DNA of 64,000 nt from Escherichia phage vB_EcoM_G8. Of this stretch, positions 1 to 37,058 are shown piece after piece. The stretch lies in sequence record NC_054915.1; one strand, 5' to 3'. A program made the translations under genes and the position numbers. The notes beneath the pieces were generated by a model. It ran no database searches and had not been told where the DNA came from. It saw nothing but the letters and a program-made list of their open reading frames with translations. Positions within the stretch are counted from its first letter, which is position 1. Every line of letters starts with the position of its first letter.

Positions 1-2178
1 TTAGGCCGCAAGGGCCTTCATAGTTTTAGCGATTTGGGAAACTTCATCATCACTTAAAGAGTTGCGATAACCGATGAAGTCGGAAACAATACGGAATTTC
101 TTGGTAAACTCAGCAACCATTTTATCACTATTTTTTGAAGCATTACGTGATAATTCATCAAAGAGATTAGTTACTGTCCAGATGTCATGACCGATGGTAT
201 CTTTTCCACCATTAAAATATACACCCTGTAATGAACTAACCATATTAGCAAGTCGTGTATATTCTTCAGAAACTTCATCTACACTGAAGTACTTCATCAT
301 AAAATCTAACTCAGGATACTTGATAATTTTATCAATATATCGTTTAGCTGAACTTGAATAACCTACATACTTATCATAATCTACATCATCAAAAGCATCT
401 ACATATAAATCACGCAAAGCTTCAAAAATACATTGGCACTGACCGAGTTCTTTTACCTTTTTCTGTAAAAGCGGACGAATAACATAAAATTCATTAATGC
501 CAATAAGATTAGCCATACGAATCAAAATATTCATAGATGGATGACAAATAGATGTAGTACCATCCATAGAGAAAATATCAGAACGATGCATATACGCTAC
601 ATAACCAGTAATTTCATCTGCTTCTGACGTAAGTGTAAATAGTTCCTCTTTTTCCCAGCGCCCGTCTTTAATTTCAAATTTAAATGCAGTAGCAGCTTTA
701 GGACGAGGAGCTTTACTTTTAACTACCTTTGGAATATAGCTTTTAACTAAAGCTTCAATTTCTGACAAATAATGAATGTTAACTTCATCACTTTCAAACA
801 TCGCCATAATATCAGGAAGTAAATCAATCTGCGATTCTACTTCTGGATTAATAAACAGAAGACGCTCATTGTGATGAATATTCAAAGTGTTATTAAATTC
901 ACTATCATCTAACGCACGTGCTAATCCACGGACAATATTAACACGATTTTTAATATTATCAATAACGATATTAATTTTTGTTGCATTAATACCAAACAGA
1001 CGATAACTTGATGCAACGGCTGAAGTTTCATGACTTTGCTTAATGCGTTTCAGTCGAGGGTCAAGATTTACTTCATACACAACTCCTGCATTGCATAACT
1101 TACTGTCAGGTTCAAACATGCTCTGCATCTTTTTATATGACAGATTTTTAGTCGTGAATTTGACTGAATTACTAATCATATAATCTCGAGCAGAATATCC
1201 CATCTTCATCAATTCACGATATGTGTGACGAGGAGATGTAGATTCTTTAAATCGTTTTACATCTTCATTAAATGCTTTCTCACTGAGTTCTTTAACCCGT
1301 TCAATAATGTTTTTACGAGTACGATCATCCAGTGAAAGAGCCTCGCGAGATGGAGCAATATCAAGTGAACCCATTGGAAACTTAATGTAATTCACTTCAT
1401 TGCGAATGCTTAGCCAGTTACGGTCTCTAATAACACCATCGATAGGATAAACAATACCGCCATAGATAGCATATAATCCACCACGATCTGGCCAGTATCT
1501 TTCTGGATTTACGCCATAATAATCATCAAAATCCGGAAAATAATCAATTTCGCGGTCAAGACCATTAATGATAGCCAAATCTTTGAACGGTCGCATGATA
1601 TAAGAAACTTCATAAGCAAAGTTTCTAAAGTCTTTTTCTTCAACTGGAACTACAATTTCAATACCAGTTTTATCATCTGGACCCATTTCTTTCACGAATG
1701 TAGGTTTAATCTGTGGGCCATCACCATCCATGTAAGCTACATAACCACGAATTTCACCTTTATGGTATGAAGTAATACTAAACGTATCAGTATAACTAAA
1801 CGGAGATTTAGAACCTAAACCAAATCCGCCAATGAAATCGTTAGATTCAGCCTTAGATGAACTGAAGTATGAATTATACAAACCAGGAGAATTATCATCA
1901 CCCTGAATATCAAAATCACTCATACCCGGACCAAAATCTCGACAAACAAATCGTGGATCTAAACGTCCAGGAACTTGTATGATAAATTTTTCAGGATTTC
2001 CATTGAGAGCATGGGCATCAATCATGTTGGTAATCAATTCACGGACTACTGCGCGAATCTTGTTTGTATACAAATCAGATGACAGAATTTTAAATACTTT
2101 AGGATTTGCTGCGATGCTAAATGCTTTTGATTTAGAACCATTACCAAGAATTGTTTCTTTTTCAGTGGTGATAATCAT
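1..2178 (-). CDS. rIIA: rIIA protein (rapid-lysis / Rex-exclusion locus)
   Basis: 725-aa ORF with stop at window positions 1-3; N-terminus [16 protein letters not shown] and length match remembered T4 RIIA (725 aa). Confidence 0.9.
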
Positions 2179-2188
2179 AATTTCCTCA

Positions 2189-2392
2189 TTAATTCATATT
2201 ACGCTTAATAACTTCAGCAACTTCTAGTAATTCATCTTTAGTTGCGGTGTCGGATTGAATTTTATCTCTAATATCCTTAAAGCGGTTTTTAAATTCTTCG
2301 GCTTCTCCCATATCGAAAAAGCGTTGAATGATTCTATATTCTCGATGAACTGCTTTATCAAAAAGTTCTAAATTTACTTTATATGATTTCAT
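2189..2392 (-). CDS. rIIA.1-like small protein
   Basis: 67-aa ORF immediately upstream of rIIA, served by early promoter at 2418-2447 and a GAGGA RBS; T4 gene order. Confidence 0.6.
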
Positions 2393-2417
2393 TTCAATAT
2401 CCTCATTTGCCCAATTA

Positions 2418-2447
2418 ATTATACCACATCCTTGTGGTAAAGTAAAC
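2418..2447 (-). promoter_or_regulatory. T4-type early promoter (-35 GTTTAC, 18-nt spacer, -10 TATAAT on minus strand)
   Basis: plus strand reads attata...gtaaac; -35 overlaps gene 39 stop codon. Confidence 0.7.
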
Positions 2448-4267
2448 TATTGGCTCATCCATTCTTTACGAAGGTCAGCATTATCTCCCATGAGCATTTC
2501 AAAAAGCTCTTTCCAGTTCTCAGGAAGTTTAACAACATCATATACTGGGTTTTGAATCATCTCACGATATTCAGATTTTTCCAAAGAGCCAAGTCCCTTA
2601 ATATAACGGATGCTATGTTTAGGTAGAGCATCTTTAGCACTCTCATATTCAGCGACTGTATAAAACCATTCTTGTTTTTTACCGACCTGAGCGATGATTA
2701 CAGGAGTTTTGACAAAACGAATTCGTCCTTGCTCAAACAATTCTGGCCAATTACTAAAAAATCCGAGCAGAGAAGGATAAATGCTTCCTAGACCATCATG
2801 GTCAGCATCAGTCATAATAGCAATATTATGATAATTCAAGTTTTCAGCTTTTTCACCAAGAACTAATCCAGTGATTGCGCAAATATCAAATAGTTCTTTG
2901 TTTTTAAGCATATCAGCATATGACATACCCCAACTGTTGAGAACTTTACCACGTAATGGATAACCACCATGAAGTTCTTTATCACGAACATCAATAAGAT
3001 ATCCGATAGCCGAATCACCCTCAGTCAAGAAAAGAGTAGTGTCAGCATCTTTACCACAAAGATTCGCTTTGATATGTTTATGAACCTTAGCTTTAGAAGC
3101 CTTTTTAGCTGCTTTAGTTTCTGCTGCTTTTTCTGCCGCCAATTTACGAGCTAATGCTGCTTCAATAATCGGCATTAAAATTGCTTCATTATTCAAAATA
3201 GCACGTGAAATCTTTTTAGCATCAAGTTGAATATGACTACGGATTTCACCAAATGGAGAAGTCAAACGCTCTTTAGTTTGAGAATCAAATCGCATGTTTT
3301 TCATATCACGAACAAACATAACGATAGTCAAACATTCTTTAACGCGTGCTTTAGTTACATCAATTTTGAACTTGCGTTTGATTTGTGGAATAAGGTCTTC
3401 ACAAATATCATCCATAACACAGTCAATGTGATGGCCACCATTCTTAGTGTGAATGTTATTCACATAAGTTAATTGACGAAAACCGTCGGGTGAACGACCA
3501 ACCGCAATAGAACAATTTTCTTGTTCTTGAACGATAGCATGTTCATCATACTGTCGTGCATATTTCTTAAAATTGCCCTGAACCTTTTTACCATTAAAGG
3601 TAAATTGAATATCAGGATAAACAACAGCAAGTGTCTGGAGACGATCTAGTGTAATGTCAAGATAAACCTGGGACAGCTCATTAGTTTCAAATGACATAAA
3701 ATCAGGAATGAAAGTAACACGGGTTCCTTTCCATTTTCCAGGAATATCTTCCCATGATTTATTTTCCATGCCGTTTGAACAACGAACTACAATATTATTT
3801 TGACCATCGCCAGTTTCACCGACAAACATCACAGAAAAAATGTTTGTCAAACTAGAACCAACACCATTCATACCGCCGGTGACGCGTTCTTTATCATCAC
3901 CGAAGTTACCACCCGCTTTTGGAATAGTCCATGCAGCAACTGGACCAGGAATTTCTTCACCGGTAGGTGTTTTAACCATCGCTTGTGGAATACCACGACC
4001 GTTATCTTCAACTGTTACTTGATTGTTTTTAATAGTAACATTAATTTTATTTGCGAATTTAAACTTAGTACGAATACCTTCATCTACTGAGTTATCGATA
4101 ATTTCATCAATAAGCTTAACAAGACCAGGTACATACTGAACACTTTCCCATTTACCAAACAGAAAGCGCTCATGCATTTCATTAGCAGAAGAGCCAATGT
4201 ACATGCCGCTACGCTTTTTGATATGTTCAATATCGCTCAGAATTTTAATTTCATTCTTAATCATCAC
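2447..4267 (-). CDS. 39: DNA topoisomerase II large subunit, uninterrupted gp39 (GyrB-like ATPase + Toprim; includes the segment that is separate gene 60 in T4)
   Basis: 606-aa ORF; GHKL ATPase and Toprim motifs; C-terminal portion continuous with N-terminal portion; directly adjacent to rIIA.1 with no mobA/gene 60 between. Confidence 0.92.
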   Translation of the reverse strand: MMIKNEIKILSDIEHIKKRSGMYIGSSANEMHERFLFGKWESVQYVPGLVKLIDEIIDNSVDEGIRTKFKFANKINVTIKNNQVTVEDNGRGIPQAMVKTPTGEEIPGPVAAWTIPKAGGNFGDDKERVTGGMNGVGSSLTNIFSVMFVGETGDGQNNIVVRCSNGMENKSWEDIPGKWKGTRVTFIPDFMSFETNELSQVYLDITLDRLQTLAVVYPDIQFTFNGKKVQGNFKKYARQYDEHAIVQEQENCSIAVGRSPDGFRQLTYVNNIHTKNGGHHIDCVMDDICEDLIPQIKRKFKIDVTKARVKECLTIVMFVRDMKNMRFDSQTKERLTSPFGEIRSHIQLDAKKISRAILNNEAILMPIIEAALARKLAAEKAAETKAAKKASKAKVHKHIKANLCGKDADTTLFLTEGDSAIGYLIDVRDKELHGGYPLRGKVLNSWGMSYADMLKNKELFDICAITGLVLGEKAENLNYHNIAIMTDADHDGLGSIYPSLLGFFSNWPELFEQGRIRFVKTPVIIAQVGKKQEWFYTVAEYESAKDALPKHSIRYIKGLGSLEKSEYREMIQNPVYDVVKLPENWKELFEMLMGDNADLRKEWMSQ

Positions 4268-4316
4268 TTATCCTCGTTTGGTTTCGGGAATATTATACTC
4301 CAATAATCATAAAGCT

Positions 4317-4334
4317 AAAGGCCCGAAGGCCTTT
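4317..4334 (-). promoter_or_regulatory. C(UUCG)G tetraloop stem-loop (6-7 bp stem) between lipoprotein gene and gene 39
   Basis: plus strand aaggcc-cgaa-ggcctt; followed on minus strand by ttggagTATAAT -10-like element. Confidence 0.55.
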
Positions 4335-4603
4335 TATTTAAAACGAATAGTCGAATCCTTGAAGAATAGTCCAGAACATACTGTTCCTTCTACTTTCTGC
4401 CCAGTAGGTCCAATAGCACGAAATCCAGTATGCTGGAAATCATTTTCAGAGCAACCGAACCAATTATATCCAGTGATTTCAATATTAGTAAAACCACTTG
4501 AAGACAAAACTTTGGTTGCATTATCAGCATCAGTACATCCTATTAAAGACACTGCTAATACTAATGCTGCAATAGAACGATTAATATATTTCATAATTTT
4601 CAC
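4334..4603 (-). CDS. putative lipoprotein (signal peptide + lipobox LIGC)
   Basis: 89-aa ORF; N-terminal hydrophobic segment ending in LIGC. Confidence 0.6.
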   Translation of the reverse strand: MKIMKYINRSIAALVLAVSLIGCTDADNATKVLSSSGFTNIEITGYNWFGCSENDFQHTGFRAIGPTGQKVEGTVCSGLFFKDSTIRFK

Positions 4604-4977
4604 TTAAATTTAATGGCTTGAAGAAGACTAATAACTCTCAAGCGGCTTCTTTCATCTTTAACTGTAAAGGAAAGAGGGTCACCAGATTTCATAGTGATAG
4701 TGCATTCAAAATCAAAATCTTCAGGAACTTCTTCGAAGAAGTCAAATTCTTCATCATAAATTAGAACATTACTTTGAAAACTGTGAAGAATTTTTCCATC
4801 ATTTCCAGATGCTGTACTAATCATTGTAACATTATTACCTTTCATATCTTCAACGATAAATTCGCTTGTAGATATTACAGCATTAATAGAACCATTCCTA
4901 TAAATAGCAGACATTAGATATTTCTTTTCTTCGCCTTCGCGAATACGATACTTCTTACCGATTTTAAACATAATCAC
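4600..4977 (-). CDS. hypothetical protein
   Basis: 125-aa ORF, start/stop overlap with neighbours typical of T4 early operons. Confidence 0.5.
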   Translation of the reverse strand: MIMFKIGKKYRIREGEEKKYLMSAIYRNGSINAVISTSEFIVEDMKGNNVTMISTASGNDGKILHSFQSNVLIYDEEFDFFEEVPEDFDFECTITMKSGDPLSFTVKDERSRLRVISLLQAIKFK

Positions 4978-5787: not shown

Positions 5788-5885
5788 TACAATTTCCTCA
5801 TTAATTAAACATTGGAGCGATGCGTTTCAGAAGAGTATCAGCACCTTTAGCGAATTTCCATTTTATTCTCCAAGTTGTTTTCTGT

Positions 5886-5927
5886 ATCAGTAGTTGATAT
5901 TGATATAGTACCATAATCAACTACTGA
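5886..5927. repeat. 13-bp perfect inverted repeat (atcagtagttgat / atcaactactgat) with 16-nt spacer containing early-promoter-like tatagtacca motif
   Basis: read directly in intergenic region 5788-5958. Confidence 0.6.
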
Positions 5928-5958
5928 TGTATATAGTTTTATGAAAAAATTTTAAACT

Positions 5959-6447
5959 TTATGCATAGAGAGCATTGCTATAGTGTTTAATCCAACTTTC
6001 AGGAATGACTTTGTATGTTCCTAAAAATACCACATTGTACAGCTTAACACCATCTTCTACCCATTGATCAGTAATGTATCCACACATAGCGCGAGTATAA
6101 ACAGCCTTTCCATCATCTTTGATAAATTTAAATTCACAAGGAGCAACGAACTTGATAGCTTGACCGAGTTTCCACTTAAAGTCTACACCTACGTGCGAAG
6201 TATCAATCGTTTCAATTCCTTTAGCGGGAACAGCTTTCAAAAACGCAGATTCAAGAAATTTCGCGCGAACATAACCAAACTGAGGTTTAGACTTTCCATC
6301 TTTAGGAATGATACGCACTTTTACTTCAGAATCTTCATCTTTAACGCCGTGTTTAAGCTGAATGCTTACAATTTCGACCAATTTTCCTGCTGCTTTAGAG
6401 CGGGATTTATCAGATACACGAGCTAATTCACCAATATTAATAATCAT
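5959..6447 (-). CDS. MotB-like protein (162 aa; either motB or motB.1 of T4 order)
   Basis: length equals T4 MotB; position between gene 39 block and dexA; shares C-terminal TDQW-EDGV-L-NVV motif with next ORF. Confidence 0.55.
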   Translation of the reverse strand: MIINIGELARVSDKSRSKAAGKLVEIVSIQLKHGVKDEDSEVKVRIIPKDGKSKPQFGYVRAKFLESAFLKAVPAKGIETIDTSHVGVDFKWKLGQAIKFVAPCEFKFIKDDGKAVYTRAMCGYITDQWVEDGVKLYNVVFLGTYKVIPESWIKHYSNALYA

Positions 6448-6491
6448 AGTTATCTCTCACTTGTTAAAAAGATTTTATACTCCACAGGACC

Positions 6492-6521
6492 ATTATACTC
6501 TGGTCCCAAGAGTTTGTAAAC
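6492..6521 (-). promoter_or_regulatory. T4-type early promoter
   Basis: plus strand attata-18nt-gtaaac upstream of ORF starting at 6447. Confidence 0.65.
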
Positions 6522-6523
6522 TA

Positions 6524-7066
6524 TTAATTCAAAATAGCTACCACTGCACTACGAGGTACTACGCTAAAATCACCCGCATGAACAACGTTCAGAAGTTCAA
6601 CACCATCTTCAATCCATTGGTCTGTTACCCAACCACAGACCGAAATAAATGGGGTCTTAATAGCTACTGCATGAGTCAAAAGGTCAGTAGGATCAACTTC
6701 TTTGAAGAGGATAAGCTCTGCTTCAAAGACTATAGTTTTAATTACTTCATCATTATCTAAACGGTGTACTCGAATCACGTAAGCTTTATTCTTATCATAC
6801 CAGTTACTTTTTGAAAAGCTTTTAACCACAAACTCGCCTTCACCAAAAGCATTAGTCAATGCTTTATAACCCAAATTTAGTTCAGTAGTTTTAATTTCAG
6901 TTTCAACCAGTTTGTAGGTTTTGCCAATTTCGATGGTCCGAGCAGTCATAAATGTTTCCTTAATTTCTAATGGTTTAACAAGAGTGCCGTACATGCTTGC
7001 TATATCCATATCAAACGGTTTAGCTACCGGATTTGGTATGTATTCAGGATTATAATTAAATTTCAT
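6524..7066 (-). CDS. MotB-paralog protein (180 aa)
   Basis: C-terminal 35 aa clearly similar to 5959-6447 product. Confidence 0.55.
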   Translation of the reverse strand: MKFNYNPEYIPNPVAKPFDMDIASMYGTLVKPLEIKETFMTARTIEIGKTYKLVETEIKTTELNLGYKALTNAFGEGEFVVKSFSKSNWYDKNKAYVIRVHRLDNDEVIKTIVFEAELILFKEVDPTDLLTHAVAIKTPFISVCGWVTDQWIEDGVELLNVVHAGDFSVVPRSAVVAILN

Positions 7067-36263: not shown

Positions 36264-37058
36264 CTACGAATAGGCCCAAACATATCCATAAGCAATTTTG
36301 CTTTTTCCAGATATGCACTTTTTAATATTAGACATGCATCCTTTAACGGATACAGCTGCGTCTTTAATTTTAGGAAATACTCGTAATAATTTTCCAGTAG
36401 TATCATATTGAAATACTGGCACATTTCTTTTCTGAGTTATCCCACGTTTAGATTTAGACATTTTTTGTTTAGTTGCATTAGACATCCTAGAGGGCTTTCC
36501 TATGTTATCAGAATAATAATATTTCCATTGAAATCCTCCAGCGGTTTTCCTTTTCCCATCTACACATTGTTTAATTGAACTTGAACAGCTATATGACATA
36601 TCTTCTGCAGCATCTGTAATACATCTATATTTGCGAATAAAATTTCCATTTAAATCATATTGATAAATTGGTTTTCCAGCATTTCGTCTAGCGTTAGACA
36701 TGTATTTTTTATTATCATCATCTTTCCAGAACTCTTTCATGCCTTCCGATATTGAGGAAGATACGGCTGTTTTAATCCATCCATACATTTTATTATTTAG
36801 TCTTGTTCCGTCAGAACTATAACACATCATACGAATAGCTAAAGCCAATTTAGGAAGTCTATAAATTTTAAATAATAATAAATGCGCGGTAAAATGTTCT
36901 TCTGGTGTCAAAAGAACTAAATTAGTTTTATCATCTGTACCACCCATACATCTAGGAATTATATGATGAGTTTCAGTATAGTATGTTAAAAGACTTTTAT
37001 CATTGCCTCTGTTTAGTCCTTTTTCGATCAGTAAATTATATATGTTTAAATAATTCAT
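36264..37058 (-). CDS. HNH homing endonuclease with tandem NUMOD-like DNA-binding repeats
   Basis: 264-aa ORF; HNH core HHIIPRCMGGTDDKTNLVLLTPEEH; two repeats of ...QYD..G..+..+.+I.DAA... Confidence 0.8.
   Translation of the reverse strand: MNYLNIYNLLIEKGLNRGNDKSLLTYYTETHHIIPRCMGGTDDKTNLVLLTPEEHFTAHLLLFKIYRLPKLALAIRMMCYSSDGTRLNNKMYGWIKTAVSSSISEGMKEFWKDDDNKKYMSNARRNAGKPIYQYDLNGNFIRKYRCITDAAEDMSYSCSSSIKQCVDGKRKTAGGFQWKYYYSDNIGKPSRMSNATKQKMSKSKRGITQKRNVPVFQYDTTGKLLRVFPKIKDAAVSVKGCMSNIKKCISGKSKIAYGYVWAYS

Follow-up and report, generated by a model that had tools for sequence, protein, structure and literature searches.

Positions 2447..4264 on the minus strand of Escherichia phage vB_EcoM_G8 (numbered along the window, i.e., the whole 64,000-nt stretch of NC_054915.1 that was analyzed) can be assigned with great confidence to an intact, uninvaded allele of the Tequatrovirus gene for the large subunit of topoisomerase II, with a 64-nt empty homing site at 2783..2846. 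The basis of this reading is the continuity of the frame, the end-to-end alignment with gp39 and gp60, the shared break points, and the absence of the cassette, and none of the data speak against it. Judged by its sequence, the locus corresponds to the empty site that was called “parental” by Bonocora et al. 2011 and Manning & Atkins 2022.

An uninterrupted gene 39 is already known, given that RB32 has it under the annotation “60plus39”, that the structure of the T6 protein has been solved, and that the literature includes a detailed analysis of the arrangement. The finding matters little beyond correct annotation, in which the locus should appear as gene 39 (or “60plus39”), encoding the large subunit of topoisomerase II as one protein of 605 aa, with its ATG at 4264. 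It is also a textbook empty homing site, and the phage could serve as a recipient control for MobA homing or the transfer of the bypass cassette, like hundreds of other sequenced phages.

Reading Frame and Start Codon

The mechanical list of open reading frames gives a minus-strand frame of 2447..4267 at this locus, which amounts to 606 aa when counted from a GTG, and it was as an ORF of 606 aa that the preliminary description presented the gene. The single uninterrupted frame stands, but the length does not, as the upstream GTG had been counted. The product is almost certainly of 605 aa (MIKNEIK...EWMSQ), followed by a TAG stop, and the gene ends at 4264, not 4267. The GTG (4265..4267, minus strand, in the sequence GAGGATAAGTGATG) lies in frame one codon 5' of the ATG, which comes right after it at 4264..4262, and it is probably not the initiation codon.

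It is very unlikely that the GTG at 4267 is the true start, which would yield a protein of 606 aa. This codon is a permitted start and is in frame, but the GAGGA in the sequence 5' of the gene (...GAGGATAAGTGATGATTAAG...) is just 3 nt away from it, in contrast with 6 nt from the ATG, and the annotations in T4, T2, T6, and RB32 all begin at the equivalent ATG, with the genes of T2, T6, and RB32 lying at the same coordinates, 2447..4264. The solved T6 chain, in turn, aligns from residue 1 (MIKNE). The preference for the ATG is thus drawn from the spacing of the GAGGA and the annotation of the homologues, rather than from protein data.

Relatives and Domains of the Protein

The product was identified from the ORF, Pfam, phrog_543, its identity with RB32 YP_802945, and the T6 chain 8ylu_C. 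It is the same as the RB32 “60plus39” protein (YP_802945.1) at 605 of 605 positions, the same as T2 gp39 (BBF63163.1) at 604 of 605, and the same as T6 gp39 (BBF63428.1) at 603 of 605, and all three represent the same gene, with the same length of 605 aa and the same position relative to rIIA. Nucleotide identity inside the gene varies from 96.8 to 97.7% against these three phages, and our comparison of the genes described their DNA as differing from that of G8 by synonymous changes only, which is to be read beside the one (T2) and two (T6) residues just counted.

The Pfam domains found in the protein were HATPase_c (48-150), DNA_gyraseB (251-385), and TOPRIM_C (520-605); the Toprim model itself fell below the default cut-off, TOPRIM_C alone having scored, and the translation itself was used to locate the Toprim motifs. 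All of the acidic residues of this domain are on one chain, that is, E415 in LTEGDSA, and D486, D488, and D490 in MTDADHDG. The order of the domains on this single chain is thus a GHKL ATPase, a GyrB transducer, and Toprim/TOPRIM_C, as in the bacterial GyrB/ParE and in the N-terminal half of the eukaryotic Topo II, and full-length alignments were also obtained with human TOP2A/B, yeast Top2, and ParE.

In the PHROGs, the protein matches phrog_543, “DNA topoisomerase II large subunit”, over its full length (E 2.4e-295). The NCBIfam gyrB/parE models match as well, with scores far under their equivalog cut-offs (217 versus 882 bits), which is expected of phrog_543, a branch of the type IIA family that is specific to phages and has gp52 as its partner. 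Among the solved structures, the T6 gp39 chain from cryo-EM (8ylu_C, from 8ylu and related entries) aligns over the full length of the protein, and the artificial T4 gp39-gp60 fusion, 8yo3, aligns in two stretches.

Gene 39 is translated collinearly into one GyrB-like chain of 605 aa, with no need of either the reassembly of subunits or ribosomal bypass, and the ATPase gate, the transducer, and the unbroken metal site of the Toprim domain are all located on gp39. Together with gp52, this chain is predicted to form a two-subunit (heterotetrameric) type IIA topoisomerase like that of T2 and T6, because the protein is nearly identical to that of T6 (2 aa differ); the partner gene, 52, lies outside the 64-kb window. 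The gp39 and gp52 of T6 make up an active ATP-dependent type IIA topoisomerase, and the T2/T6 enzyme has two subunits, whereas that of T4 has three (PMC11461880).

Correspondence with T4 gp39 and gp60

In T4, the parts of the enzyme that are homologous to the G8 gene 39 are found in an arrangement of genes 39, mobA (a pseudogene), 60.1, and 60, with a translational bypass of 50 nt. When T4 gene 39 and the joined gene 60 were translated from NC_000866 and compared with the window protein by BLASTP, residues 1-473 of gp39 matched residues 1-473 of the latter (98.5%, no gaps), and residues 27-160 of gp60 matched residues 472-605 (95.5%, no gaps, E 1e-95). A counterpart of gp39 474-516 or of gp60 1-26 was sought in the window protein in the same BLASTP comparison, and none was found.

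One ORF does cover what T4 expresses from genes 39 and 60, as had been proposed in the preliminary description, given that gp39 1-473 and gp60 27-160 both align on it. The C-terminus, which had been expected to match gp60 over some 90 residues, aligns as foreseen, although the stretch is of about 134 residues.

On the minus strand, the part equivalent to T4 gp39 1-473 occupies 2846..4264 and carries the ATPase, the transducer, and the first half of the Toprim domain, including the EGDSA glutamate, E415, as delimited by the BLASTP match over 473 aa and by the resumption of the blastn homology at 2847. The part equivalent to the chromosomal (non-cassette) portion of T4 gene 60 occupies 2447..2782, on the same strand, i.e., codons 495-605 plus the stop, and carries the rest of the Toprim domain and the TOPRIM_C tail, as delimited by blastn, by BLASTP against gp60, and by the Pfam TOPRIM_C match.

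The 64-nt Parental Segment

By blastn, the homology of the window with T4 is continuous over 1..2782 (97.7%) and begins again from 2847 (96.2%), and the 64 nt of the window at 2783..2846 are faced, at the same place, by 1117 nt in T4 (2794..3910). The break points, 2782 and 2847, are identical in the comparisons with T4, e11/2, and HY01. The segment between them (minus strand, AENLNYHNIAIMTDADHDGLGS) corresponds to nt 1419-1482 of the gene and to codons 473-494, and it is the “parental” segment that is replaced by the MobA cassette in the mobA+ phages. The same 64 nt are found in T2 and RB32, and nt 1402-1500 of the gene are identical to T2.

The codons of the window run unbroken through this region as GAC CAT GAT GGT CTA GGA AGC ATT, versus GAT CAC GAT GGA in T4, followed by a gap of TAG plus 47 nt, ending in GGA, and then TTA GGT TCT ATT. 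The copy of the target that is carried by the cassette itself matches window 2793..2838 over 46 nt at 76%, and this is the sole resemblance of the T4 insert to the window beyond chance-level matches and an HNH paralogue.

These limits coincide with those of the published element (Manning & Atkins, bioRxiv 10.1101/2022.08.31.505936), which was described as having 64 nt deleted from the parental gene, with its 5' end at nt 1399-1419, its 3' end at G491 + 9 nt in the clade of E. coli phages, and a homologous region, borne by the cassette, that shares 67-81% identity with the parental sequence. In particular, no difference was detected from the uninserted, “parental” alleles of Topo2L in clade 1 (Manning & Atkins 2022), which have the same 5' boundary at codon 473 (nt 1419), the same 3' boundary 9 nt past G491, and the same 64-nt segment. 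In T2, the parental segment holds the MobA nick region, as well as the point after G491 at which T4 has the 50-nt gap (bioRxiv 10.1101/2022.08.31.505936).

The 64-nt junction also bears on the quality of the record. The probability that a real split of the T4 type was present, and that the cassette was collapsed during the assembly, is negligible, given that the 64 nt of the junction are absent from the T4-type genomes and are shared at at least 99% identity with 168 independent records, and that the gene has the same coordinates and frame in T2, T6, and RB32. A collapsed cassette could not have given such a sequence, and nothing specific speaks in favor of an artefact of assembly or annotation.

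Absence of the MobA Cassette

In the phages of the T4 type, the same 64 nt are replaced by approximately 1.1 kb, which adds a C-terminal tail to gp39 and a new N-terminus to gp60 and brings in mobA, the 50-nt gap, and a copy of the target that has diverged. The cassette measures 1106-1117 nt in T4, e11/2, and HY01, with its gp39 tail, mobA, gp60 head, and 50-nt bypass gap, and the 1117 nt of T4 include a 43-aa gp39 tail, a remnant of mobA, a new gp60 head of approximately 30 aa, and the diverged target copy. In these phages, the cassette splits the Toprim domain between E415 and the DxDxD motif, and the added tails are thought to help in its reassembly (PMC11461880; bioRxiv 10.1101/2022.08.31.505936).

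The reference insert of T4 (NC_000866), with its 1117 nt and a mobA annotated as a pseudogene or as fragments, is 10-12 nt longer than that of most of the other cassette-bearing records (about 1105-1107 nt). An intact MobA of 272 aa is encoded by HY01 and e11/2. The annotation of the element is uneven, and in several records mobA carries a wrong label (e.g., “MobE” in e11/2) or gene 60 is not annotated in its joined form.

No part of this cassette was recovered from the G8 locus. A tblastn search with the intact 272-aa MobA of HY01 returned nothing in 2447..4267, and its sole significant match elsewhere in the 64 kb was a distant HNH paralogue at 36720-37058 (41.6%). The sequence of the 50-nt gap, searched over the same 64 kb, gave only chance-level matches (≤14 nt, E ≥0.1), and a search with the whole T4 insert gave, besides the paralogue and the 76% target copy, only chance matches (≤23 nt, E ≥0.1).

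The T4 gap, led by UAG and placed between Gly46 and Leu47, is likewise lacking at the G8 locus. The frame contains no untranslated 50-nt stretch after a GGA take-off codon followed by a stop, and simply reads GAT GGT CTA GGA AGC. The C-terminal extension of ORF1 and the N-terminal extension of ORF2, both encoded by the cassette, are absent from the window protein. Given the continuous frame and these negative searches for MobA and the gap over 64 kb, the preliminary description was right that the locus has no gene 60 split, no mobA, and no bypass element.

A second way of arriving at the same structure would be secondary loss, in which an ancestor carried the MobA/bypass cassette and then lost it through precise deletion or recombination with an uninvaded relative, restoring the one-piece gene. 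In other clades, the element has been described as being lost progressively, and “hit and run” cases have been reported (Manning & Atkins, bioRxiv 10.1101/2022.08.31.505936). The flanks of the G8 locus, moreover, resemble those of T4 and e11/2, both of which bear the cassette, slightly more than those of T2 and T6, which points to frequent exchange among these phages.

Secondary loss is nonetheless unlikely here. The 64 nt are the parental sequence of T2 and RB32, not the 76% copy of the cassette, no added residues of the gp39 tail or the gp60 head are left, and a search of gene 39 for a scar of the cassette, in the form of codons of the T4 type or of residues remaining from the tail or the head, found none. 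A deletion inside a T4-type allele would leave cassette-type codons and is thus ruled out by the parental ones, so that the exchange of the whole allele for an empty one is the only fitting route, and this would be traceless and would make no functional difference. There is accordingly a low probability that a cassette was once present and was cleanly restored to the one-piece state by recombination with an empty allele, as a natural purging of the mobile element; if true, such a restoration would be a small addition to a cycle of gain and loss that has already been described.

On the reading preferred here, that of an uninvaded allele, we infer that the G8 gene was never invaded, although the locus would look the same if it had been invaded long ago and recombination with an empty allele had since removed the cassette. 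The idea that the locus is of the ancestral type, put forward in the preliminary description, is borne out by the parental 64-nt segment, which is not the diverged copy, and agrees with Manning & Atkins (bioRxiv 10.1101/2022.08.31.505936).

The same allele may also be open to invasion. According to Bonocora et al. 2011, as cited in bioRxiv 10.1101/2022.08.31.505936, T2 is nicked by MobA and converted in mixed infection. The invaded allele, on the other hand, is shielded from MobA by the 50-nt gap, approximately 20 nt from the nick site (bioRxiv 10.1101/2022.08.31.505936). Since the site of G8 is identical to that of T2, for which the nicking is reported in the literature, the G8 phage would, as a recipient in mixed infection, be susceptible to MobA homing.

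Occurrence Among Related Phages

In a search of the phage collection, the parental 64-mer was found at at least 90% identity in 410 phage records, of which 168 had at least 99%, and the T4 insert was found in 43. About nine in ten cases therefore have the gene in one piece, which is the usual state, and the T4 arrangement is the exception. A further count, of 518 records that covered at least 80% of a 2.6-kb query, was set aside, as the BLAST pieces flanking the 1.1-kb insert had been joined and records of the T4 type were included.

The DNA of the first 6-8 kb (approximately) of the window was compared with T2, T6, RB32, T4, e11/2, and HY01. Over the first 6-7 kb, of the phages that carry the cassette, T4 is 97.7% and 96.2% identical to the window on its two flanks, and e11/2 is 97.5% and 97.1% identical; of those that do not, RB32 is 96.5% identical, T6, 95.9%, and T2, 95.8%. 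Over 1-25000, the closest records are vB_Eco_BGP and vB_EcoM_FT (96.7%), with the mobA+ e11/2 among the top matches, and over 39001-64000 the closest is vB_EcoM_PTE-Eco15 (96.7%). The window is thus a mosaic Tequatrovirus sequence that is identical to no deposited genome (at most about 96.7%).

As far as these comparisons of DNA go, the presence or absence of the cassette is uncoupled from overall relatedness, as would be expected of a homing element. The uninterrupted gene 39 was also considered as a marker of the T2/T6 lineage, and was rejected in view of the 410 versus 43 records and of flanks that are nearer to T4 and e11/2. The preliminary description had held that this gene marks the genome as T2/T6-like, and this has to be abandoned, since the one-piece gene is the majority state, the DNA is nearer to the cassette-bearing T4 and e11/2, and the protein is identical to that of RB32, not to those of T2 or T6. 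What does stand is that T2 and T6 share the one-piece arrangement at the coordinates 2447..4264. In general, lineages should not be told apart by the presence or absence of the MobA/bypass cassette, because even very close relatives differ in this respect.

Neighboring Genes

The order rIIA, rIIA.1, 39, 39.1 is conserved in comparison with T4, RB32, T2, and T6, and downstream of gene 39, on the same strand, the window has rIIA.1 at 2189..2392 and rIIA at 1..2178. The former encodes 67 aa (Pfam PF24210 T4_RIIA1, E 1.4e-33) and is the next gene downstream, as the preliminary description indicated, but it does not directly abut gene 39, from which it is separated by a spacer of 54 nt (2393..2446, minus strand) between the stop of one and the start of the other. 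As the spacing between gene 60 and rIIA.1 is the same in T4, the adjacency of rIIA.1 does not tell the two arrangements apart.

The promoter scan and the sequence of this spacer revealed a promoter-like TTTACT-17-TATAAT, which is TG-extended, and a GAGGA ribosome-binding site for rIIA.1. The candidate promoter is a 10/12 sigma-70-like site with an extended -10 (TTTACT-17-TGgTATAAT), located directly after the TAG of gene 39. The scan of 2100-4700 for promoters and terminators showed no enrichment over shuffled sequences, and is used here only as a description.

On the other side of the gene, between 39.1 and gene 39 (4268-4333, minus strand), a GC hairpin, AAAGGCCTTCGGGCCTTT, precedes the sequence GCTTTA-12 nt-TATAAT, which has no entry in the simple scan. 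This last arrangement resembles a T4 middle (MotA-box) promoter.

Farther upstream, an ORF of 125 aa lies between 39.1 and 39.2 (4600-4977, minus strand), which T4 does not have (the blastn gap corresponds to window 4597-4968), and which is also found in RB32 (as “similar to RB69ORF005c”), T6, and e11/2. This ORF matches phrog_622, a family of unknown function, and its N-terminal part weakly resembles goF. The cef-motB interval (window 5857-6530, in comparison with T2, e11/2, and T4) is polymorphic, with an extra small ORF in T2 and e11/2 and an identity of approximately 92% downstream.

Finally, the paralogue found in the MobA search is part of a free-standing HNH homing endonuclease of 264 aa (36264-37058, minus strand; phrog_655, “homing endonuclease”, E 1.6e-52), whose N-terminal 107 aa (36720..37058) are 41.6% identical to MobA, and which represents a different mob-type element.
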